From Microbotryum violaceum (lineage: Eukaryota), in the NCBI GenBank assembly GCA_001244265.2, contig CDLV01000018.1, positions 496,001 through 560,000 on the forward strand: a stretch of 64,000 bases of DNA, in the 5' to 3' direction. Of this stretch, positions 28,847 through 64,000 are shown piece by piece (position 1 is the first letter of the stretch; each line of letters begins with the position of its first letter). The notes beneath the pieces were generated by a model, which worked only from the letters and a program-made list of their open reading frames with translations, searched no databases and was not told where the DNA came from. The translations under genes and the position numbers were made by a program.

Positions 28847-30574
28847 TTAAATCGTGTATCGGAAAGTCGTGGATCCTTCAATCTCGGTGCCGTTAAGGTC
28901 AGCGGAGGCGTTGGCCCGGCTGAAGGCGAACGAAAGACCGGCGAGCATGAGGAGGATAGCACCCTGGCAGCCGATCGTGGCGCCGAGACCGGGGAGGTAT
29001 AGGGGGTAGTCAACCTGGCGATAGACGAGCGAGGCGAAGATACCGCCTACGCCACCCATGCCGATGACGATGGCCGAAGAGACGGCGCGCTTGGAGTGGT
29101 TGCGCACGTTGTTGGCCGAGTAGGCGAGTACCGCGGGACGTTGGCTTGGCATCCCGCAATGGCGAGGAAAGATCCGAAGTAGCGGACGCCGATTTTACCA
29201 CCCCAGCCCATGATGATTAGACCGATAGTGCAGACGATGGCGTTGATGGCAATGAAGAGGGCACGCTTGCGCATCTTGTCAGCACCGTAGGCAATCGCGA
29301 AGGTGTGGAGGGCGGCGAACACGTATGGCGGTGCAGAGAGGATCAAGGAAAGCTCGTTCGAATATCCCCCACCGGCAAGAATGACGGGAAGGAAGTAAGA
29401 GAAGGCGTAGGCGGGCATGGTCGAGAAGCAGAAGCAGAGACCGAAGACCCAAAGTTTGTAATCGGCGCAGTGCCTCATGAACGAGCCGAAGGTGAGGTGA
29501 TCGGGAGCGGAGTCTCCTCGGTCGAGTTCGATGCGCTCCTGAACCATTTTGGTTTGATCCGGGGTAAGGAAAGTTGCCTTGTCGGGGAAGTCGACAATCA
29601 AAGCGAATCCGATCAAGCCGAGGCCGACGGTCGCAGCACCGAAGACAATGAAGATCCATCGCCATGCGGCGATGCCGTGTTGGCCGCCCAGCTTGGAGAT
29701 ACCGTAGCCGAGGATGTTGGAGAAACCAGAGATGACCATCGAGGTGAGGTAAAAGACGGCCATGCGCTTTTGCGTCTCGTATCGAGTGTACCAGCACGAG
29801 ATCAGGAAGACGCAACCAGGGAAGAAACCACTCTCGAGGAGTCCGAGGAGAACACGGCAGGCGGCGAGCTGGTGCCAGTTGGTGACGAATCCCATTCCGA
29901 GCATGACAGCACCCCAGAGGGCGACGATAGCGGACAAAAGGTTGCGAGCACCAATCTTGCGGAGCAGGATGTTGGAAGGGAGCTCGAAAACGATGTAAGG
30001 AGGGAAAAACTATAGGGTGAGGGTGGCGCCTAGGTCAGCTCATTGTTTCTCCTTGGCACTGAACAACGCGGACGCTCATGACCTACGACACAAGTGATGA
30101 TAGAGTAGCGTTGGCCAACGGTCAACTTCAAATCCTTCGCCATACCCGCAACACGAGCAACAGAGATGTTGCTGTGAGATGGAACGAAACAAGTGCCAAG
30201 GCTGTCAGTCAAGGACCACGTCACTGCGCAGCAGAACAGACTCGGACTGATAAAGCACTGACGTTCTGTCAATAAGCGAAATCGCATAGAGGGCACCAAG
30301 AATGATCAAAAGGCGGCGATCGACCTTCTGCCTGTAGTTAGAAAGAAAGGCACACAAGAGTGTAAGCGAACTACACTCACGACAGAGCCAGCTCGAAGTA
30401 GTCACGCGCGCGGCGACCCAAACGCCCCCAATCGACTCGCCAAAGAGGTTGTCCTACTCACATTGTCTTGCGCTCGAACTCCTTGTCCCAGGTGCGAGCC
30501 TCGAGAGCATTGGTAGCATTGTCCTCTCGGTGGAGCTTGTCATGCTTGTTGTCTTGGGAGCTGACCGAAGACAT
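28847..30574 (-). CDS. MFS transporter, anion:cation symporter (Tna1/Dal5-like) family, copy A; carries a -1 frameshift at ~29136 (pseudogene or assembly error)
   Basis: KVDRRLL...SLIDRTNI, FFPPYIVFELPSN, RVLLGLLESGFFPG...SCWY.R.E, WRWIF, DFP..A.FLT; G3 at 29135-29137 where copy B has G4. Confidence 0.9.
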
Positions 30575-49513: not shown

Positions 49514-50518
49514 GGTCGGGCGCTGAGGATGCATGGTATACCGAAGCGAAGATGTGGAGGCAAAGCGCTGTGCCGGAGGAATCCGAGTCCAATTTTGAAG
49601 GGCGTCGACGATGCTCTTCCGACTCGAGGAAAAAGAAGCGAAAGAGACATAAAGACTAGACGACCACGGAAAATGGACAGGAGCGTTGAAGTGACTAAAA
49701 GGTCATAACATAGGCCAGAAAATAAGGTGATTATCGTGGCATATTTCTGCAAAGTATGTGGAGTTCTGCGCGACCCACCAAAGGTGGGCGGTGTATTTCG
49801 GCGTCGGAAGGGTCTCTTCTTGCCGGCGAAGCCCCTGTTGCGATGTGCACGCCATCAGCACCGCTTTGGACTCTCCCCGCACGCTCGCGCGCGGGCCCTC
49901 TGTCAAAGAAGGCTCGAGGGCTTTTTTTCTCTCAAGACGCTAAGGTCGAGGTGAAGTACGGCCGAACCGGATGAGCTATTTTGGCGCGCAAACCACCCTG
50001 CCCTTTCCCTCGTCTTCGCTTCGCGCAGCACAGGCCTCCTTTATGACCGTGTGGAGAATGCCCACTTTTCAGTCGTGACCCCTGTCCAAAGCCTTGACGG
50101 ATATTGTGACCTACCTTTTCCGGAAGACAATCGGATCCTCCACAGTAGGCTAAAGCGTATGATAAAGCTTTCATCGCTTAGCCCGGTGGCAGTACATCAA
50201 GTGCAACTTCGAGGTGATGTGGACAATTGATCGAAGCTCAGTGAAACCGCGTCTGGCGATCGACGTCTGGCTTCGATAGGAGACGAGTGCTTTTTATCAT
50301 GGGAAATGCACCGGCGGACTTGGGTGTCAGCTCTCGCTCGCACAGATAAAAAGGTCGTTAATGTATTGCAGGCATGGCCAGGAAACAGATTGACAGAAAA
50401 AGACAAACGCGAACGAGTTGGAGATTTCGGATGCCCGGCGGGCCAGCATATGCACGTTCGCAGCACGGCCGGGCACGAAATGGGGTAGTGACGAAACCAA
50501 GCGATGCAAGAAGGCATA

Positions 50519-53500
50519 CTAGATCGAGCAAGAAGGATTGATAGCATGGACCTTGATGACGGGAGGACTTTTGGTCATGTCGGACCTGTGAAGAACGCGG
50601 CATGATGATTTATCAGTATTTGATGCGTGCAATGGAGCGAGCGTTTCGAAAGCAGCGTGCGAATAACACTCACGTGATGACGACCGGCACGGTCTGCAGT
50701 TCTCGAACGGTTTGGATACAATGCTGGTCACGGTCGGACAAGCCCTCGAATTTAAGTGGCATTCTGTTGAGACTCTTGAGCCTCTGACCGGTCATTCGAA
50801 GCGGTTGTTTCCTCTGGCCGTCCGCCGGCTCCTCGTCGTCCTCGTCGTCCTGCAACGACAGGGTGTCCAAAGGTGCGGTACGGTCAGTATTCCAATCGTG
50901 GTCAAATACAACGTCGAGCAGGTACTCACGTCGAATAATGCGCTCTCCGCCTTCGACTTTTTGTCGGCATGGTTGCCCAAGCCGCGCGCATGGAACTCGG
51001 CCTGGTCGCGGATGCGCAACAGGTGCTCGTCGTTGTTCTTCTCGGCGAGCCAACCCAGGACCTCGACGTTCTTCTTCCAATAGATCGACAGGCTGTTGTC
51101 GTGCTCGTCATATTGCGTCGACTCGGTCGGCATTTGATCCTGCAGTGACGATACGAGCGACGTGTGAGGTGCTGTCAGGGTCAAGAGGTAGAGCAGACAT
51201 CAAGACTTACAACATGAACCCTCTTCTCGATGCCAAACTCGACAACGAGGACGTCAAAGGCCTGGTCCAAGACACCGATCACGACAGCGGGTCGAATGAC
51301 GGGACCGTAGCGTTTCGTAAGGTCGTGGACGAGCACACAGAGCATCAAGTGCTGCGACTGCTCTTGCGCCAACTTGGCGTTCATTTTCTTGATGTTACAC
51401 ATCGACGCAATCTTGCTCACGGCCTCGACATCGAGTGAGAACTTGGGTTCGCCGACACTCACTTGCTGCGCCTCGTGCGCTGCTTCTTGAGCCGCCTGGT
51501 GCGCAAGGATCGCCTCCAATTGGCGATGCACGATCACGTCGGCGTACCTTCGGATCGGAGACGTGAAGTGCGTGTAGAGGGGCACGTTGAGCGCGTAGTG
51601 GGAGTACTTGGAGATGTCGAGCGTGCCCGTGCAAAAGTATTTGGCCTGTTGCATCGAACGCTTGCTGAGATGCTGCAGCGTTGTGCGAGACGCCTCGTCG
51701 GTGACTTGGTTGAACGAGTTCATCAAAGCGCCAGGTCCACTGCCATCCAGTTTGATACCCAATCGACCCATGCGTTCGATGAAGCCGTCCAGACGACGAT
51801 CAATAGGCGGTTCGTGGCGTCTCAAAAGTGCTTGGTCGGGGAGGGCAGTGGCGATCTTACGCGCAACGGACATGTTGGCCAACAACATGAACTCTTCGAT
51901 CAACTCGTTCGCCTCCTTGCGCACGTAGTGATCGCAGTCCTCTGGCTGGCCATCCTCATCGAGCTTGAAGGAAACCTTGACGTTATCGATCCGCAACGCG
52001 CCATTCTCGAAACGCTCCTTCTTGAGGTTGCGCGCAATCATGTTGAAGCGCTTGATGTCCTCGATCGCCTCGAGACGCTCTTGCTCGGTCTCGAACTTGC
52101 CCTGGATGAGGTCGCGACCCTCGAGCACCTCTTGGACATCGCTATAAGCGAGTTTGGCCCTCGAATTGATCAAAGTCTTGCCGAACCAGGTCGATAGCAC
52201 CTTGCCTTCGCGCGTCATCTTCCACACGACACTGAACGTCAACTTGTCGCTGCGCGGGTTCAAGCTGCAGAGCTCCTCGCTCAAAGTCGGGGGCAACAAT
52301 GGAACGGCGCGCTGGACGAGGTAAACGGTCGTCCCACGCTTACGGGCCTCACGATCGAGCGCGGTGTTGGGTCGAACAAAGTGCGATACGTCGGCGATGT
52401 GGACTCCGACTTCGAACGTGCCATCCTCGAGCTCGACCACGTGCAAAGCGTCGTCAAGATCTTTTGCCGTCTCGGGATCGATGGTGAAGACGCGCTGGTC
52501 GCGAAAGTCGCGGCGTACTTCGGGTTGCTGTTCGCGCTCGGGAATGGACCACCGAATGGGTGGCAAGCATTTGACGACGGCATCCGAGAAATCTGCAGAG
52601 AGAGTCCGGCTCAGCTCCTACATTTACAACGATCACCACTGAGATTAGAGATGAGACTGACCATCGTTACTAAAGTTGCAATTCTTCAGGAGCGCGTTCG
52701 TCTCGGCCTCGATATCACCAATCTCTCCCAACTCTTCGACCAAACCGCCGAAAGGGTGTAAACTAGATTTGGGCCAGCGCTTGATGCTGCCGAGGAACAG
52801 CCTCGAGGCGTACTTGTCCGGACACTCAATGAAATCCTCGGGCGCTTGATCGGTTGGGATTGCAATAAGCGGAACGCGCTTATCGGTTGGTCGGAACCAA
52901 ATGATCCTCGGTGCAGGGACGTGGTTGCCTCCGCCGCCGTACGGCTGCTGCTGCGAGGCGTTGCCTGATGACGGCGTCGAATTGTTGTTGCCCGAGCGAA
53001 GATCGACGCCCTCGCGTTCTCGGCGCTCCGACTCTTGCTTTTGCTGCGTCGCTGCAGAACTGGGCCGCAAGACACCCAGCATACCACTGAAAAGCTGTCC
53101 GGGTGCTCGCTCAACCACGGCAACGATGTGACCGGCATACTGAGGCTTCTGGTCGTCGTTGACCTCCTCGTCTTCGAACAAGAGCATACCCTGGCCCTCG
53201 ACTTCAACGTCGTCTTTCTTCTTGTCGATCTTGCGCAGATCGCGCGTCGCACGAGGGTCGTAACTAGCGTTCTCCTCCTTCTTGCGCTTCTTCTCCTCCT
53301 TGTCCTTCTTCGTTCCCCACACTTCGTCGACATCGAGGAGTTCGACGGCGACGAGATCGCCCTCCAACGCACGGTTGCGATCCTTGGATCCGCAGATGTA
53401 GATGTCGGAATCGAGCGTGTCGGTAGCGACGTACGCGTCGGAACGGTTCCTTTTGTTGACCCTCAAGGTCCCGATGACCAACTTGCCGGCCTGGACCAAA

Positions 53501-55257
53501 GGCGGGATCGAGGCTTGAGGCAGATAAGGAGCGAACAAGGTCTTCCTCGCCTGATTGCCCTGCTGGTTGTGTTGACCCGGTGGGGGCAAGCCACCGCCGT
53601 AGGATGCCATCGCTAATTGACCCGGTCCTTGACCCAACGTCGACATCCCGAACGAGGGGACGCGAGCGTGACCCGCCGAAGCTCGATAAGCCGCTAGCTG
53701 TTGAAGATGTGCCGACGCCTCGGCGAGGTTCGCCTGATGTTGACCCGGTCCAGTGAAAGACGCTTGCCATCCTCCGAGCGAGGACATGCTGCCGCTCTGT
53801 CGCCGTTGGTGGCCACAGGCACGACCGGCTGACGCCTGGTCGTTGGAGGTGTTAAAGTCGAGCCTCTGCTGGTTGCGATCGTTCATAGAGTTGTGATTAC
53901 CATCTTGGGCATGGTTGGGGAACTGGAAGCTGCTAGAGAGAGTTTGTTGATCAGGCTGCCCCGTAGGCTGCTGGTGCTGTTGTTGTTGTAGGGCCTTGGT
54001 GTTGACCGAGTGGCGGCGCCCATGGCCTTTTGGCAGACCAGCCGCAGAGGAGTTGCCCGACGCCGCAGAGGCCGAGCCAACGATGGGCCCAGCATTGAAC
54101 GAACCCATTTGGCCAAAGGAGTTCGCACCGCCACCGCTGCCGAACGAACTGAAGGCACTCTGGCCACGTCGATGGCTCGGAGGTGGGTTCGAGGTCGCGA
54201 TGTTGACCGGCACTGGTTGCGTCGGCTCCACGCCGGAAGCGGCTTGGAGCTGCTGCTGCTGCATGTCACCAAACCGTGCCAAGAGTTGTTCTTGCTGAAT
54301 GCGCAGATTCGTCAATTGCTGTTGGATCGCCAGCTGCTCGCTCAGGAGCTCGCTGGCCTGACTCGCCACGCCGGTTGCGGCCTGCTGTTGAGCGGTCTGT
54401 TGCCCGAAAGAGCCTTGCAATTGTGCGGCTTGCATTTGAGCGTACTGTTGTTGCGTCGAGGTTGCGGGAGGGAACGAGAAGCCAAATCCTCCCACTCGTG
54501 CACCATTGCCACCGGCGCCCAAGCTTTGAGCAGCCGCGAACCCGCCGACGAATTCGGCCCCGGGTCCGATCGCATCCATGGCAGAGAAGTCGGCGTACTG
54601 TCGTGGAGCTGCTGCTGCGGCACCGGCACCGGCACCGGAACCAGTTTTGGTAGCTCGAGCGATCGCGGCGGCGGACCTCGGGACGCCTTCCATCAGGTCA
54701 AAGTGGGTCGCCGTCGGTGTGACGAGCGATTCGTCGAGTGAGTCATGGATGGGGCCCAGCAGGTTGGGCTGGAAGCCGCCGGCTTGCGGGTTCAGGCTCG
54801 ATGACAAGGTCTGGATCATCGGAGCTGACGCCGGTGGGGTCGTCGACGACGCTTGGTTCTTGCGGTGCGGTCCCCCTCCGCCACCAGCTTGTTGACGTTG
54901 GCGTGCTGGCGAGTTCGAGTTGGAGCGGGGTTGGTTCTGGTGACCCGAACGATTGGTGACCGAAGCTTGTAGGGAAGAAAATTCGGACGAAGGTGAATCC
55001 TGGGGCTTAGATATGATATTTTTGGTACTCGCCATACCTTGACTTGCGTTGGCCTGGCCATTGTTGGAGGCTCGTCCCGACTGTTTTTCTGCGTTGCTGC
55101 GACTGCCCTTGCGAGAGTGGGGGGCCGATCCGGCTCCCTTGTTGGCGGCGACGTTAGGACTGGACGATGAGGTGGATGGGGTCGTCTGCTTGGGTGTGGC
55201 TGAGCCGGTCCTTTTCTGTGTGTTTGTAGGCGGAGGTGTGACGCTTTCTTCGGTCAT
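50519..55257 (-). CDS. SSD1: Ssd1/Dis3L2-family RNB (RNase II) protein with Q-rich N-terminus
   Basis: RKTLFAPYLPQA, G.LRVNKRNRSDAYV, ICGSKDRNRALEGDLVAVEL, IWFRPTDKRVPLIAIP, TIDPETAKDLDDALH, HYALNVPLYTHFTSPIRRYAD. Confidence 0.93.
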
Positions 55258-56714
55258 GATGCTGTAGGCGAGATGAATGGAGCTCTCGTTCGTCAGTTCG
55301 GGCACACCAAAGTGGATGTCTCAAGTGGGGTCGTCAGACAAAGAGGCCCTATCGCCGTCTCGGGGCGGTGGTGTATCGACGTGTCAAAGAGTCACCAGAG
55401 AATCAATGCTGACTGGCGTCAGACCTATGATCCACCTATGTAGCTCGTGATGGCGTGACAACAAGCTCGCGATAGGGTATAGGGTGCGAGCGACCGAGGT
55501 GACGTGGACGCGTGCGGGGAGGCAGATGGTGGGTGTGGCGTCGAAGGCGGTCGATGCGGAAGCAAGATCCGCTGACAGGCTTTGAACGTCCCACTCACCC
55601 TATAAACGATCCGTTCGTATTAAGACGAAAGAGATAGGCGTAGCAATCAAGTCGACAAAAGAAGACCGAGTTCCTGAAAGGCGTTCAGTTCGGGTGAAAG
55701 CGAGCTAGCTATAACTAAATCCAAAAGTGGGGGCGATCCGTGCGCGTCGTGGGGCTGACGACGACCTGGGGAAAGGGAAACCGGCGCGACGAGGGCGAGG
55801 TGCAGGGAAACGACACGATGCAGCGTGTTCAGTACTAGCGCTTCAGATGGTGCATTGTGAGCAGAGGTGTTACGGTCGTCAGCTCGAGGGGCGGTGCAGG
55901 AGCTGTGCGAGGTAGCGTGACTGAGCTGGGAGCGCTCAGGAGAGAACGCGCGTAGTCGTGGCAGCGATGGTTGGAACTCGGCTCGTGCGACCCAAGAAGG
56001 GAACGCAATGCTCCCACCGATCGACGACCAGATTGAGGACTCACCTCGTGGATAGTCACTAACGAAGGGAATGGATGTGAGCAGCCGACGCAGCGACTCG
56101 GAAAGCAAAGGTGCGTTGGGACGTGGAACCTATTCGACGGCGAATGGTGCTAAACTGAGCCCGGCGCGGAGTTGTAGTGGCGCAAGTCGCGCGCGCGCTG
56201 AGGGTGGCCCCAAATGAACAGAGGTGCCACCTATGCGGGTCAAAATAAGCCTAACAAATATACTACCCCGCGCGCGGCGAGTTTAGGGAGCTTTTTGAAG
56301 ATTTGGCCCAGGAAAACGTTGGTGCGGGCTAGGTGCACCATTGCCCTGCCAACCCCCAGCCCCCGGAGGCAAAAGTGGTCACTAATCCGGGCACTTGCTA
56401 CTTATCCCCGCTCATGGTCCATCTGCCTCAGCACCACGAGTTCCCCCCACTTCCCTCCAACCAAGGCCTTGCAGGCTCGCACCCATCGCTTCAAGCATGG
56501 ACATCCTACCACACACACCACCACCTCTACAACCTCGCTCAGCATCGCCAGTCGGAACAGAGAAGGGAAAACGCACTGACAAGACCAAGCGCAAGAAGAG
56601 AGCACGACCGTGAGGAGGAGGAGGAGGAAGAAGGTGATCAGCAGCAACAAGGACACGTTCGAGAATGGGGCCACGACGTCGGTCGGAACGGAGGAGGAGG
56701 CGAAGACGAAGAAG

Positions 56715-59700
56715 ATGAAGAAGAGGAAATTATGGACCAAGCGAGTACGGAAAAGGGAGCCATCGTTGTCCCCGGATAGCGAGCTGTTCGACAAGGCGTT
56801 CGGCTTCAACTTCGGTATTTTTCGCTCTCCAACGAAGAGGCGTCCGAAACGTCAGCCGGGCCCTCCCCTATCACCATCAGTCCAGAGGTCAACGCGTCGT
56901 CGGAAGGAGCATTCGGAGAAATCCATTGCCGGCCTCCACAAATCATCGTCCGAGGCTTGGACTGACATTGCCGATGGCGCAACGGCGTGGCCTCTAGACA
57001 CCGAGACCGGCGGCTTCGAGCACGACTTCGAGCCCCACAGCGCGCCCGACTTTGAGCCCGACTACGACTTCGGTCGCGATTTCGGCGGTGGATACTCATC
57101 TGGACCGGAGCATTCGCCATTCCACCCAGACGGTGCTTCTCAAGACCAAGCGCCCTCTTCCCTTAAGCGATCGCAGATCGAGAGGAACGCCAAGAAGCAG
57201 CGCAATCGTCGCCGGAATGCGAGGGCCGAAGCTAAGACTAGGGCGTCAAAACGAGCTGAACTTCTCCAGGCGTACCTATTAATGAATAAAAAGGCCAAAG
57301 AAGTGCTTCGACAGAGCGGGTTTGTCCCTTCCTCGGACGACGAGGGGTGGTGCGACGCATGTCATGAACGCCGAGTCACCAGAAAGTTCCGGGTTGTCGA
57401 CCTGTTCTTTGCAGGTAAGTGCTTATGTTGCACGTATTTTGTCAATCACCCTTACGCTATCGTCTTGGACTGGTTTTATATCCCCCAACCATGAGCAGGC
57501 GTGCGAGAACTACGATACTGCCCACGCTATTCCGAGATCCAAACCCTGGCAGCTCACGGTCTTCTCCCGACGTCGTCATCTTCAATCCGAAAAAGAGAAG
57601 GCATCACCGCATTCACCTTTCGCACGATCGAATATCTCAACACCTACTGGGGGGTAGATCCTTTTGGTATCTATGACATGTCCGAAGCGCTCATTCTCTT
57701 TTGGTCCTCTAAATTATCCTCGGAGGATCCTTTTAACAAGGTGGGCTCTGGACAGGGTCAGGCCGGTAACATTCACTGTTTCTTACAGAAAATATTGGAA
57801 GCTTCCCAGGGTCCAACCGTGCGTCAGCATCTTCAAGCCGCAATGGATGAATATCGATTTATGCAACAGCTGCAGGTAACTTTGACCGCCGAATTTATCG
57901 GCCTCTCCCGCGCGAGCGTCTGGCCGACGTTTGTCCGGCATGTTTTGGGCCTCGGATCGATGAAGCCGGCAAGAGCGAGAATGACCTCGATGTCATCATT
58001 GCTGTCGACGGCAATTTTCAGCATCGACGATTCGCGCGGGCAACTGCTGATCCTCTCAAGTCACGTCCAGCGTTATTCCTGTCACCAGACAAGATTCGAA
58101 ACGAGCAAGCTTTGATCGACGGATCGACTGAAGCGGGCGAGCAGAGGTACCTTGGTGCTGCTGGTGTCGGGTCACCCGAACCCAATAATGCGTTGACCCG
58201 ACTGTCTGTGATTGCTAAACGGGCTATTCTATCATATAGGACGAATGCACAGCGAACTGGAAGGCCGCAGATGGTGGTGTGACCTCCGCTTTGTCAAATG
58301 TAGTAGCCGACACAGGCCTCGTTGCTGCAGTGTGCCGTCATGATCATTGCCTGCGACTTTGCAACCTTCATCAATCAGGTGAAAAGTATGTGTGGACCGG
58401 CCATCTGTGACTCCAGGCAAGGACACTAATAAGCGAGTTTGGTCTACCGCAAGTTAGTATATCCCGTGTCGCTGTTGAAATGGATTCTCGAAGAAGTTGA
58501 AGTCGGAGAAACGGATTGTACTACGGGACCTGCGCGTACCAGTGACGCTACAAACGTCGGATCCAGCTCGGGATCGAGCTCCCACCAAAGTTCGAGTCAG
58601 GATCGAAGTCGCGTTGGAGTCGCGTATGATATCGCCTGCAACTTATCGTCGCACTTACGCCGTGTGAGTTTGTTCGTGACACTCAGCCTGAACATTGGCT
58701 TAGTCCGTAGCTGAACAGCTCATCTCTCCCCGGTATGCGCAGCGCAATCTTCTGGCAGACCACTTACCGCGTCTAGAATTTGCTCTCTCGTCGATACATG
58801 CCTATGCGCACAAGTGGTCCTGCCAGGTTGACTTTGATCCGCGCTTTTTACCCAGTTTTGGTTTGACTGATGCCAAGGGAGCCGAGCGCTTGTGGTCGCA
58901 GCTTCGAGGCATGATACCCATGAATCGATCATCCAGTGCCTCCCATCGGCTGGAGAACATCAATCGTCGAGCGTCTGCTTATAACAAGCAGCATCTGGCC
59001 GAACTTGGTTCGCCTAAGCGTCCAGTCTTTCATGCACTACCTTACCATGTCGCTGATCTTTGGCGTATCGATCATGCCCAGTGACCAAACTTAATTCTCG
59101 ACTCAAAAACGCAATCAAGCTCAAGGCCGAAGCCGACAGAGTCATTGCTGAGGTCGTTAATCGCTCCGCCGAATGGACGGTCGCTACCCTCCTTGAACAA
59201 TGACACGCGCAACGTGCAGCGTCCAAGCAGATCCCTCTGAAAGAGCAGCGCAAAGAGGTAGCCGAGATGCGCAACGTCATGTTCAAGCTTGAGCTGATTA
59301 ACAGAGACATCGCAGCATGCCGGTGGGTCTGAGCTATCGTCGTCGTTTGGGAGTGAGACACGAACCGGTAACCTAACTTCGGTATTCATTTTTCGATTGC
59401 TACAGGGAAGACCTAGCCTGCGTGAACACCATAGATACGAACAAGCTTATAGAACAGTCGACTCAACTTCAGCAGCTGGCCAAACAACGGCAGGTTCTTG
59501 ATGATCGACTGAACTCCTTACGCACGTCGGACATAAACATCAGTGTCCTGGACCCTGGTACGTCACTCCCTTCTTCCATTCTGACCCTCTGGTGTGATCC
59601 CCGTTGTCCTCGCTTAAATATTTCAATACCTTTGATTGGCACGGACTAGGAATTTGCCTGCACATTGATTATCGCATCTCGCTCGCTGTGGGACTTGGTC

Positions 59701-60666
59701 GTACAATATCGACAGGGAGCTGAGAAGCTGCGGCTCCCGTGCCTAGGCGGTAAAGCCCTCGGTAGGAAATCCATGGTACGAGTCTTCTGCGCCGGCAGAA
59801 GGAACGCTGATGTGTAGCAATGCCAGCTCATAGGTACGAAAGCGGCTGGTCTCCTGGTCAAGAATCTTAATTATTTGCGTTCAAGACTCATGAAGGCAGT
59901 GGCGATGTATAACGACGAGGTGAAAAAGTATGCTGCCATCCTCGCCAATTCTGAGGATTCCCATTCGATCTTGAGAACCCGAAGGGTACCGCCGTCAGCC
60001 CCAGAGGATCTCAACGAACTGCTCAAACTTGATATCTTGGCGCCGCTCTGGAACAACGGATTATATAGTCATCCCACTGAGCCGTGGGCCTACGATGATG
60101 ATGTTCGTGTCGGCATTCCAGCAGTATTGTCTCGCGCAAGATGCCAGCAAGAAATCAAGCGACTTGGATGGGAAGTGCGTCGCATTGGACGGTGGCTGAT
60201 AAGCCGTCGCAAGAGGTTTCAGCAAGTTCGCCAGCAATCACTCCAACGAGATGAGCAGGATGACTCTGCGATGATGATGCTCGAGCAAGAAGAAGAGCGT
60301 CTTAGAAATATTGCGCGCCGATGGTTTTCGAAGGGCGGCCTAGATCACCTGTGGGAATGCACCCGGCAAACCGGCGAACCGCAAGTGGAGGAGTGGGTCG
60401 AGCTTCGAATGTGGTGCACCGACGACGTTGATGTTTTTCAACGAACCACAGCGGGTGGCTTGCCGGATCACACATGGCCAGACTGCATCAATGATGGGAT
60501 GGTCGGAGAGTCAGACGACATCACCACGGATCATGACACCCTTCTTGACATCAGTGATCATTCGAGCGATGATCTGAGTCATCATTCCGTCGACACTACC
60601 GATTACGGCGCCTTCAGTGACGAGATCAACGAGAACTTTGATGAAGACGATGGCGATGTTTTTTAG
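56715..60666 (+). mobile_element. KDZ (Kyakuja-Dileera-Zisupton) transposase with CxC1-like Cys cluster, ~9 introns, inactivated
   Basis: WCDAC...VVDLFF...YC...LAAHGLLPTS...TAFTF (CxC1-like); CPACFG, IAVDGNFQHRR, CTANWKAA, DTGLVAAVCRHD, GEK, YDIACNL, HAYAHKWSCQ, FGLTDAKGAERLWS, EPWAYDDDVRVGI; frameshift at ~57908 and in-frame TGA at 59201. Confidence 0.92.
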
Positions 60667-62739
60667 GGGATTTGATATTGATCATATATAGTTGCAGTCT
60701 TTTGCCCAGTTGCTACTTGCACTAGTAAAGAGATCAATGATGCGTTCATTTCGCTAGTAATTCTACCCGTTATACGTCGCTTCGCCAGGAAGTGCAACAA
60801 GAGCGATCAGACATCCAAGACCCGGCATCGCTAAATCGCTCGATCTTGCGGTGGCTCGCCTAATGTCGCTCGAGTAAAGCTGGCAGCCGGAGCCCAACAC
60901 GACCGGTAAGATTTAGAAGAAGAGCGCGTTACACTGAGGGAGTGAACACAAGCGTCCATTGCATCTTTTTTGCACTGACTGCACTGAGATCTCCTACATG
61001 TAGACCGCGCTCCCTGCCAGTCAGTCACATGCGCAGTCCGTGTCGTGCCTTGGGTGACACTTCCCAAACAGTCAGCAGGGATTGCAAAAGTACTTATTAT
61101 ATTCCAACACTGCCGACTACATTTTGATGTATACTTGAACGAAGTCCTGATCCAGCTCACAGTCCCAACGTCGTACAAAGGTCTTCTGTGGTGTTGCCAC
61201 GGCCACTCCGAGGCTCACACTCGCCCAGCTCCGTAGTGTTTGCCTCGGCACTTGGTTGATGACTTTTCAAACGCAAGGACCAGAAGTTGATCACCCCTAA
61301 CAGTCTTTTTCTGTATTATGTAATGAGTTATACATTGGTGGCACTTTAATGAGCTCTTTGCTAAGTTGCTTATAGCCAGCGTACTGCTTTGTCGCAATTC
61401 CTTCCTGCGTAGTTCACACGCTCACTGTAATCTCGATGCGAAGTACGTCATCACGGGCGCTTGCGTTTTAACAGTCGAACTGCAGCAAGTCATAGTCACC
61501 CATACCCAAAGTATTGTGCTATATTTGACTGAACAAAGCCACGAGGGAGTCAGACTCACCTTGACACACCCCTTGCTCTGTCGTTGCTCTACGTTTTCTC
61601 ATCGCGTTAGGCGGCTTGAGAGTTCTGCACGCTGTTGTGGCCTAGGCCTCCTTCTAATATCGACCGACCGACTGCCCTGCCGTGGTTTTCGGCGATGGCA
61701 GGTCATATAGTCTTTTGTGACACCAATCAGGGTTCAAACTCAAGGTGGACAACACGTCGTGTTGGAGTCAGACTGAAAGTACCCAAACCGGGAGGGTGTT
61801 TTCAAAGTTCTTTTCGACGGGACATACCGTCTTGTCATCATTGTGATGGTCATCTTCTTGGTCTTCAGTTGGGTCTTATAGTTGCGACGATGGGTGAATT
61901 CAGGATGGGACATGAAAAGAGAGGTCGAGCTGTCGTCTGACCTCTGTATTGCAGTCCCACCGAATGCCCTCACAGTTGTCCACCGTCCGGTTTTGCGGCG
62001 CGCAGGCAGTTAAGGGTTATGCAGTGGCAACCGGTTCGACCTGAAGGTGAAGTCAGATTGTATCTAAGGGAAGAAGACAACGGTAGGCCAAAAGGTCAAA
62101 CAGACGTGTGCAACGAGACCCGGTCAATGGTACGGTGCCTTCGGACGAAGCATGGATACATGGATATGATAATGATTAAGAGGGATCGGTTCGCAAGTGT
62201 GTTTGAAACGGGAGGCGCAAGAAACGGCGATGAGGTCGAAGTTGGAAAAGGTGTATGGACATTTGGTTGTACATCACAAGTTCAGAAGAAGAAGAAGAAG
62301 AAAGAGGAGATGCGTCGGCCGAGAGCTATTCTAATTTCGTTGACCCAAAGGTAAATAGATGCGCAGAGATGTCGCCTTGCCTGGATGCGAGCGCCACACC
62401 GTTGTGCTGCGGCCCATGCGGTGCGCCCCGAGTCCTTGTAGGACAAAGGTGGGGAACGATTGGTTGTGAAGAAAGACTCCAGTGTAATCTCTGGAAGGGG
62501 GGCCGTAGATGAACGGGATGCCGGCGCCCGGAGCACACAGGGGCCCCCGGGCCTTGACGTAGGAAACGGTCCGCTGGGGGGGGGTCGAGTATGCCCAGTG
62601 ATCTAGGCGGAGCCTGACAGAATGAGCGTTCTGATGGTATTGATTACAATCCTGTTAAGATTAATTGCCACAATCAAGATGGCAGCTGAGACGCTGTATG
62701 CGTGCATGACAATCATCTGAAACTAAACTCAAGGATCTA

Positions 62740-62862
62740 CACTGAAAGACGCGTCACTGAAAGACGCGTCACTGAAAGTCGCGTCACTGAAAGACGCGTC
62801 ACTGAAAGACGCGTCACTGAAAGACGCGTCACTGAAAGACGCGTCACTGAAAGACGCGTCAC
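62740..62862. repeat. Minisatellite: 8 x 15-bp CACTGAAAGACGCGT
   Basis: Eight consecutive units, with one substitution (GTCGCGT) in unit 3. Confidence 0.97.
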
Positions 62863-62906
62863 AAACCACAGAGACATAACAAATATCGGTCATCTTGCAG
62901 ACCGAC

Positions 62907-64000
62907 TCAGAGCATAGTATGCCCAAAGAAAGACATAAGAACGGTCTCAATCCATCGACGATGTTTTGCTTCATTCATCCTCCGGTCTCCTCCGCCACCC
63001 CCCCCCCCCCCCCCCCCCCCCGCTATTTTTTCTCTATCTTCTTCTCCGCTTTTTTCTGCGCCGCGTACTTCTCCGCCTTCCTCCCCGGCTCCACCAAATC
63101 TTGGGCTCAGGGGTCCTTCTCCGCCATTCAAGTCATTGTCGCTTGCCTCTGCCTCCGTGTTGTCGTTCGGGTCCGCCGAGGGTACGATAGCGAGGCGGCC
63201 GTGACGGAGGTCGTCAATGATAGCCTTGAGCTGAGCAACGGTTCGCTTGGGCGATGTCTCTGCACTATGATGCAGAGCCATTTCGTATCTACTCTTCGTT
63301 CCGGGCTTGATCCGCAATTTGACACCCAGTGCCTTCAAGCCCTGGGTAGACCATATCATCTTCTTCTGAGGTGTGAAATCGCCTATCGATGATTCCGTGT
63401 CGGAACGGCGATGTATAGTCTCGAGAGCAAAGTCTGTAAAGACGGAAATGATTAGCACGGAGTCGAGCCCGATCAGATGCAGACTACTTACTGAGTTGGG
63501 CGCGGAACAGAGTGCCGTGCCATTTTCCAAGAACGCCACGAGTAGCACTGTCCATCGAGCGAGTTTTTGCTGATATATGAGACGAAAACATATGTCACAT
63601 AATTGGTAACGGTAACTTGGTCTCATGCGCGTATAACTTGCGATGAAAGGCTCACCCTCTTTCAGATTTGCCGCTTCATTGGCCTTGAGTGTCTCATCCC
63701 AGCTCATCTTGGAAGCAAAATTAGACAACAAGGAATTGCCGGATGGATCCTTGAAGTCGTTGCAGTGAGCTGCAAATCTGAGCCCACTTAGGGTTACCCT
63801 TGCTTGCTCTCTGGTGTAAAACCTTGATTACAGGGTCCGAGAGAAATCTAGACCACGCATTGCCCTTCGAAGCGAGCCTGTCGAACTTTTTGACGGCCTG
63901 AACGAGCCTTGCATGAGATATGCCGAGTTTCGCGGCCATCTTGAGCTCCGAGTAATATCTTCGAGCGGCCCAGCGCTTCAGCGAGGTCCACTTTCTTTGA
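62907..64000 (-). CDS. 3' part of an unknown, probably spliced protein convergent with the KDZ transposase (likely element-associated)
   Basis: Open frames RRYYSELKMAAKLGISHARL...GNAWSRFL and ...WSTQGLKALGVKLRIKPG...LKAIIDDL..., with an acidic/Gly tail partly encoded by a 24-nt homopolymer; continues beyond the window. Confidence 0.45.

Follow-up and report, generated by a model that had tools for sequence, protein, structure and literature searches.

A probable two-gene KDZ transposon copy in the anther-smut fungus Microbotryum violaceum, with a constant companion gene beside the transposase in related copies

We analysed 64,000 nucleotides (nt) of Microbotryum violaceum DNA (GenBank assembly GCA_001244265.2, contig CDLV01000018.1, positions 496,001 to 560,000 of the forward strand; hereafter the window, with position 1 as its first letter), towards the right end of which an original prediction made from the sequence alone had placed a composite transposable element. 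The stretch from 56228 to beyond 64000 is very probably a single decayed copy of a KDZ (Kyakuja-Dileera-Zisupton) DNA transposon of the cut-and-paste type, from a family with multiple copies in the anther-smut fungi (Microbotryum). In this family the transposase gene is accompanied by a spliced gene, convergent to it, for a protein of roughly 477 amino acids (aa), which we call the partner. In the copies listed from two species the two genes were shown to be adjacent in essentially every case and to diverge in step. The kind of element is already known; its constant companion gene is undescribed in the literature searched. The copy in the window is dead: two in-frame stops interrupt it, three small indels shift its frame, and its partner gene has lost roughly 123 codons.

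The extent of the repeat unit (56228–64000, + strand, right terminus beyond the window) was read from the borders and depth of assembly contigs from four public sequencing runs (X1, X12, X15 and X18) aligned to 50001–64000. Contigs of the single-copy flank stop at 56257 (X1) and 56254 (X12), that is, 26–29 nt within the element. In contigs from other copies the match sets in at 56226–56228, and their sequence upstream of this point is unlike the window (four contigs in X1, with an agreement of 0.53, and others in X15 and X18), which puts the left end of the element at 56228, where the sequence begins CACCTATGCGGG (5′-CACC…, i.e. a CA start). Contig depth was 4.6–6.5 in the flank versus 50–107 inside the element in X1, and 29.2 versus 234–443 in X12. 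Single collapsed contigs inside the element had depths of 67.9 (X1; 2293 nt, 12 differences) and 295.6–310.6 (X12; the contig of depth 295.6 covers 1717 nt). The rise to approximately 10 times the single-copy depth occurs at 56226–56228 and is maintained through to the window end at 64000, which bears out the predicted single unit from ~56.2 kb to beyond the window. In M. saponariae, copies are present on contigs named for at least nine chromosomes. Blastn found no second copy of the element within the 64-kb window, and no inverted repeat inside the window pairs with the left end at 56228; a 24-mer from the left end gave 0 matches in a metagenome scan. One X12 contig joins 61513 to 63648 and represents an internal-deletion derivative that links the spacer between the two genes with the partner gene.

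The transposase gene (56497–60666, + strand; a pseudogene in this copy) was delineated by tblastn of the homologues P0004 and P0007, by spliced X18 RNA contigs and by splice-site sequences. That X18 is RNA is shown by contigs that skip canonical introns, and spliced contigs were obtained over both genes. The transposase reading extends from an ATG at 56497 to a TAG at 60664–60666 and comprises eight exons (56497–57414, 57499–58146, 58240–58386, 58454–58663, 58719–59007, 59082–59322, 59406–59761 and 59834–60666) encoding roughly 1200 aa. Joints in the X18 contigs lie at 57410>57495, 58141>58238, 58383>58451, 58662>58743, 59006>59081, 59321>59407 and 59760>59833, and RNA contigs of homologous transposase copies extend to about 60736. 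The last of these introns is 72 nt long according to the RNA (59762–59833); public gene models have a 42-nt intron there. The transposase had been predicted to span about ten exons; it is indeed a multi-exon gene, but RNA and homologues give eight, and 9–10 are reached only when two optional in-frame introns are counted. P0004 and P0007 covered 56466–60672 in seven frame-shifting pieces. Because their alignments reach through to 60663–60672, the ~1.6 kb from 59.1 to 60.67 kb, which had been assigned to degenerate DNA following the catalytic core, is the conserved C-terminal half of the transposase itself, and only ~60.74–62.9 kb is without coding sign.

In transposases of this family the N-terminus is basic and is followed by a CxC1 cluster of cysteines, by the catalytic KDZ domain and by a C-terminal region of roughly 470 aa without a Pfam match; the full-length forms have 1195–1228 aa. 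In the window the catalytic core (58004–59000, + strand) is distributed over four exons, and the motifs DGNF (58007), YDIAC (58625) and ERLWS (58884), which we take to be the KDZ catalytic residues, are intact and exactly where they had been reported. Across 16 family members, conservation in the DGNF columns is 90% or higher. The Pfam KDZ profile (PF18758) matched three separate exon translations of the window, with E-values of 0.012, 0.026 and 2.1e-17 (64 bits for the latter; cutoff 26.6), and matched the full-length homologues P0007 and P0004 with 164 and 163.9 bits respectively. A proposed check against both the KDZ and CxC1 profiles was thus passed by the window for KDZ, but for CxC1 (cutoff 26.9) by P0007 only (28.8 bits, residues 280–370); P0004 stayed below the cutoff with 22.9 bits, and the two exon pieces from the CxC1 region of the window gave no match on their own. 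By correspondence to the P0007 match, this region lies at 57330–57700 (+ strand), is split by an 84-nt intron (57415–57498) and reads CPRY where the homologues read CPCY, i.e. Arg for one Cys of the cluster. The best window exon retrieved 11 protein clusters from M. silenes-dioicae and M. saponariae at 56–97% identity, all of which carry KDZ and three of which also carry CxC1 according to precomputed annotation; the full-length homologues that are 89–97% identical carry KDZ. Compared with the family consensus, the window is identical at 1112 of 1188 aligned residues (93.6%).

The second gene recurs with the transposase well beyond this locus. For 17 of the 18 M. saponariae KDZ genes listed, the partner is found at the adjacent locus tag, and for the remaining one it is two tags away; M. 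silenes-dioicae contributes six further transposase-partner pairs within three tags, and contigs equal in length to KDZ-bearing ones carry most of the unnamed partner proteins. The two-tag pair, Chr6-3g09011/09013, belongs to a diverged subfamily in which both genes are open. Relative to the main family, its transposase is identical at 510 of 709 positions (72%) and its partner at 306 of 441 (69%, with 3 gap positions). A constant second gene is a feature of the autonomous copies. The proposal that transposase and partner belong to one element was supported by these pairs; the reverse outcome, a partner never found beside other KDZ copies, was not observed, as the pairing recurs across the copies of both species.

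The partner gene of the window (62907–64000, − strand, continuing off the window) is a pseudogene as well, and was traced by tblastn of P0013, P0021 and P0031. Codons 1–72 lie off the window, codons 73–135 occupy 63999–63799, and codons 136–258 or so are deleted (at about 63798–63787). Coding resumes at codon 259, at about 63794–63786, and proceeds downwards through an exon at 63786–63656, an 86-nt intron at 63655–63570 (X18 RNA joint 63569>63656, with CT..AC ends that correspond to GT..AG on the − strand), an exon at 63569–63492, an intron with canonical splice sites at 63491–63434 and the last exon at 63433–62907. The NAWSRF motif, by which a convergent gene had been recognized, is located at 63861 on the − strand, just as reported. 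In both X1 and X12, DNA contigs of multi-copy depth span this deletion point too, differing there by 8 bp (63788–63795); the partner deletion is therefore common to the abundant sub-lineage of copies. The last exon includes a run of 24 C residues (62998–63021), which is read as poly-Gly on the − strand, and members of the partner family have three different C-terminal tails past the poly-Gly, as would be the case were the frame shifted by changes in the length of the tract. Public models of both genes often keep introns, e.g. P0013, P0033 and P0035 hold intron-derived or frameshifted segments. P0035 was considered as a distant relative of the partner (50% identity) and rejected as a frameshifted fragment.

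The − strand reading frames retrieved 22 proteins, of which all named ones are from Microbotryum; most have 450–493 aa, and all lack Pfam domains. From 1.84 billion representative proteins, a scan yielded only five partner matches, all of them members of this family or fragments thereof, and searches of Pfam, solved structures and the protein atlas returned no partner match outside Microbotryum. The partner protein is helical in its core, and its ends are acidic and rich in serine. The Pfam profile HTH_50 matches 11 of 14 partner proteins at residues 79–107 or so, in all cases below the 27-bit cutoff (best E-value 0.0044). Structural modelling, which had been suggested as a check, did produce models, but not a fold assignment. 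A 67-aa partner fragment from the window was modelled as a helix-turn-helix-helix at a predicted local distance difference test score (pLDDT) of 65; it had no Foldseek match at E ≤ 0.001, and helix-turn-helix segments of RacA, Cro and HigA appeared only at E 3–9, which is a lead only. The model of the full-length partner had a pLDDT of 38.6 and was unusable, and a complex prediction for transposase residues 740–1195 with partner residues 45–425 scored 0.00, i.e. gave no answer.

As to the lesions of the transposase gene, a 2-bp insertion at 56599–56600 shifts the frame at codon 35; it is absent from the contigs of all four runs, and the homologues read KRKKSTTV. A second frameshift results from a 1-bp deletion in a C run at 57906, where all four runs insert a C and tblastn switches frame at 57908. 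An AG insertion of 2 bp at 58145–58146, just 5′ of the intron-2 donor, shifts the frame after splicing and is absent in X1, X12 and X15. The donor position at 58387 is without GT. An in-frame TGA at 59201–59203, for which full-length homologues have Trp, truncates the transposase at ~764 aa, past the KDZ domain, and an in-frame TAG at 59647–59649 stands for a Tyr of P0004 and P0007 by sequence comparison. The TGA is common to the abundant genomic copies, as a G at 59203 was seen only in X18 (0 of depth 67.9 in X1, 295.6 in X12 and 21.8 in X15), and the M. silenes-dioicae models P0001 and P0003 likewise end there (…TLLEQ). The truncated ~764-aa transposase, which is common to ~10 near-identical copies, keeps CxC1 and KDZ and loses a C-terminal region of roughly 440 aa; either this short form is active or its copies are moved in trans. 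Hypermutation at TCG sites does not account for the changes in this copy, since TCG>TTG fits only two of 20 checked window-specific substitutions.

We propose that the transposase would bind the element ends (5′-CACC… on the left), excise the unit and re-insert it, with an expected target duplication of 7–8 bp, as in other KDZ elements. The partner would then be an element-encoded accessory factor, most likely DNA-binding or regulatory, that may act via its N-terminal helix-turn-helix-like segment; we favour this role tentatively, on the sub-threshold helix-turn-helix signal. The sub-lineage to which this copy belongs (TGA at 59201, partner deleted) still stands at ~10 near-identical copies despite its truncated transposase, and was therefore probably moved in trans, presumably by intact relatives. 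Its spread without a partner means that the partner either acts in trans or is dispensable. A further-reaching idea, which we consider doubtful, is that Microbotryum KDZ elements are obligate two-component transposons, in which the partner, as a lineage-specific factor, would recognise element DNA or recruit the transposase. The transposase would then be unable to move the element on its own, and truncated or deleted derivatives like this copy would spread only with both proteins borrowed. Alternatively, the partner could be cargo that helps the element or its host in another way (e.g. by acting against silencing, a role proposed for the TET/JBP genes of other fungal transposons) or that is merely carried. 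We think this unlikely, although it would agree with the lack of any significant DNA-binding or other domain in the partner, with the spread of the abundant X1/X12 sub-lineage after loss of the gene, and with the presence of non-transposase genes on KDZ and other fungal transposons, as described in the available text of two studies (PMC12730594; PMC11343200). No free-standing homologue was found, the named ones among the five representatives all being Microbotryum element copies or their fragments. The position and orientation of the partner are fixed and its divergence keeps step with that of the transposase, and a derivative with a deletion can draw on proteins supplied in trans. The spread of the sub-lineage itself fits the accessory-factor and the cargo reading alike if intact copies supply the proteins in trans.

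Two further explanations deny that the unit is a single mobile element. It might combine two unrelated repeats, side by side or nested, with a KDZ element ending near 60.7–62.9 kb and a second element that bears the NAWSRF gene. Nothing in the window pairs with 56228 as an inverted repeat, RNA cover falls to zero between the genes, and assemblies break at a (GAA)n run, a minisatellite array and the poly-C tract, all of which would suit such a composite. We nevertheless regard it as very improbable, because the partner lies within two locus tags of all 18 M. saponariae KDZ genes listed, the diverged subfamily shows the same pairing, multi-copy depth runs through the spacer without a break and one contig links 61513 with 63648. 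It is just as hard to believe that the two genes are a segmentally duplicated host gene pair, i.e. a domesticated KDZ-derived family that is not mobile. Neither a target-site duplication (TSD) nor an empty site was seen, the right end being beyond the window, and some KDZ-domain genes of Cryptococcus are without transposon features (PMC11343200, available text). However, a host gene pair would leave unexplained the ~10 near-identical copies with a sharp common left end and differing flanks, the M. saponariae copies on contigs of at least nine named chromosomes, and the typical transposon decay and internal-deletion derivatives among the copies.

Several points weigh against a mobile two-gene element, or temper the evidence for it. 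We infer transposition from copy number, from the shared left end with differing flanks and from family identity, and the right end is beyond the window. Copy number was read from the depths of single contigs and is coarse; summed contig depths are not copy numbers. The X1 flank contigs are identical to the window, such that X1 is perhaps the window's own source and hence not independent. The 18 M. saponariae KDZ genes comprise 15 of the 20 in the main cluster and another three that belong to other clusters, with five of the 20 outside the listing, and adjacency was read from locus-tag names rather than coordinates. The abundant sub-lineage multiplied with its partner gene deleted, and no family, fold or solved structure matches the partner significantly. 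As for the three small indels, they may be specific to this copy or reflect consensus errors in the assembly of the window. Finally, X18 differs from the window by 4–6% in the neighbouring gene; its RNA therefore shows that homologous copies are expressed in a relative, and does not show this for the copy in the window.

Maize En/Spm uses TnpA plus TnpD. Like PIF/Harbinger and En/Spm, the Microbotryum element combines a transposase with a constant second gene, and its defective derivatives multiply, presumably in trans; unlike in these systems, the transposase belongs to an unrelated superfamily, and DNA binding by the partner is putative. PIF/Harbinger (Nuwa) elements encode a Myb/SANT DNA-binding protein (section 3.1.4 of PMC12730594, available in part). 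Closer parallels are the KDZ elements of Cryptococcus, which, according to the available text of PMC11343200, measure 6.4–10.9 kb, are mobile, generate 8-bp TSDs and contain extra genes without known function; in their transposases a CxC cluster precedes the KDZ domain; KDZ1, KDZ2 and KDZ3 are Dileera-clade elements with CxC1 and KDZ, and KDZx1 is a Zisupton. Like KDZ1–3, the Microbotryum element is a large basidiomycete DNA transposon with a CxC1-like cluster followed by KDZ and an extra gene without a known domain. In contrast, the Microbotryum partner has no detectable relative outside Microbotryum, so that the accessory gene differs at the sequence level, and the available account of the Cryptococcus elements shows mobility, 8-bp TSDs and terminal inverted repeats (TIRs), whereas the Microbotryum element is known from its left end and genes only.

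Kojima (2025; PMC12730594, cited from its available parts) defined the termini of Kyakuja, Dileera and Zisupton elements and their TSDs, which are 7 bp long for Kyakuja and 8 bp for the other two. The Microbotryum element shares the transposase superfamily with these families, which include multi-gene elements in Pucciniomycotina and Agaricomycotina, and its left end starts with CA like that of Kyakuja, the ends of which are 5′-CA..TG-3′. The families of that survey were studied for their TET/JBP gene. No TET/JBP gene is visible in this part of the Microbotryum element, in accord with the original prediction: there was none, nor any Pfam family beyond KDZ, among the 14 translations of 56.6–64.0 kb that were scanned (six of them spacer frames), and no TET/JBP match on the homologues of partner and transposase. 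In the available text of Kojima (2025), Microbotryum is mentioned only for TCG hypermutation. In the literature searched, supplements aside, we found no account of this family from Microbotryum, whether under KDZ or under Zisupton, Kyakuja or Dileera. A survey of Microbotryum transposable elements (10.1101/2022.08.03.502670) groups the DNA transposons together under TIR elements (CACTA, Harbinger, hAT, MuDR, MULE as well as Tc1-Mariner), and its available text has no mention of KDZ, although its supplements may list it.

KDZ transposons are large, recently recognised mobile elements of fungi; their movement leads to drug-resistance mutations in Cryptococcus, where the extra genes are unexplained. 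A partner that accompanies the transposase in essentially all copies, and whose divergence keeps pace with it, offers a clean system in which to ask whether a KDZ transposase needs a helper protein. The obligate two-component reading, if true, would supply the first defined helper protein for a poorly understood superfamily. For Microbotryum genomics, the element represents a recently amplified DNA-transposon family that is unnamed in the available text of 10.1101/2022.08.03.502670. The copy in the window is itself ordinary dead transposon DNA.

The two convergent genes are separated by a spacer of ~2.2 kb (60737–62906), for which the original prediction had assumed internal cargo. No such cargo was found: the six longest reading frames chosen from the spacer had no Pfam match, the spacer had no Rfam family, and no X18 RNA contigs (one run) lay over 60742–61675. 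X18 RNA depth was 0 in this interval and 7–26 from there onward up to 63076; X15 contigs were without cover at 63077–64000. In M. saponariae, the tags of the two genes are consecutive and there is no gene model between them. A segment of 224 bp (61152–61375) is bordered on either side by CCAGC. In X1, X12 and X15, contigs with about half of the multi-copy depth do not contain it, a pattern that resembles an indel polymorphism between copies brought about by microhomology. A (GAA)n microsatellite is present at about 62276–62313. Together with the minisatellite array and the poly-C tract, it forms the break points of short-read assemblies of the element.

The predicted ACGCGT array is present at 62740–62862 (+ strand) as a 15-bp minisatellite, CACTGAAAGACGCGT × 8.2, which we followed by repeat and pattern search and in the contigs. 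Allowing for up to three mismatches, the pattern had 10 matches in the window compared with 2.56 expected, and 0 of 100 shuffles reached 10; the matches outside the array were at 30057 and 53751 only, with none elsewhere in the element. Contigs of X12 (depth 176) and X15 skip 105 bp, or seven units, at 62739>62845, and those of X1 and X18 run through about one unit before they depart from it; the figure for other copies is about 1.2 units. The array has expanded in this copy or a few copies and is not a conserved set of binding sites. En/Spm-style subterminal binding sites were considered for it and rejected, given that the rest of the element has no further instance of the motif and that other copies have about one unit. 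Unlike a conserved subterminal array, moreover, the 15-bp array is internal.

Next to the element, the SSD1-like gene at 51181–55320 (− strand) encodes RNB, Dis3L2 C-terminal and Dis3-type cold-shock domains, and the left end of the element lies ~0.9 kb upstream of its reading frame. An X18 RNA contig skips 55852–56063, upstream of that reading frame, which suggests an intron in the 5′ untranslated region of the SSD1-like gene. Given such an intron, the left end at 56228 would be at or beside the promoter or first exon of the SSD1-like gene.

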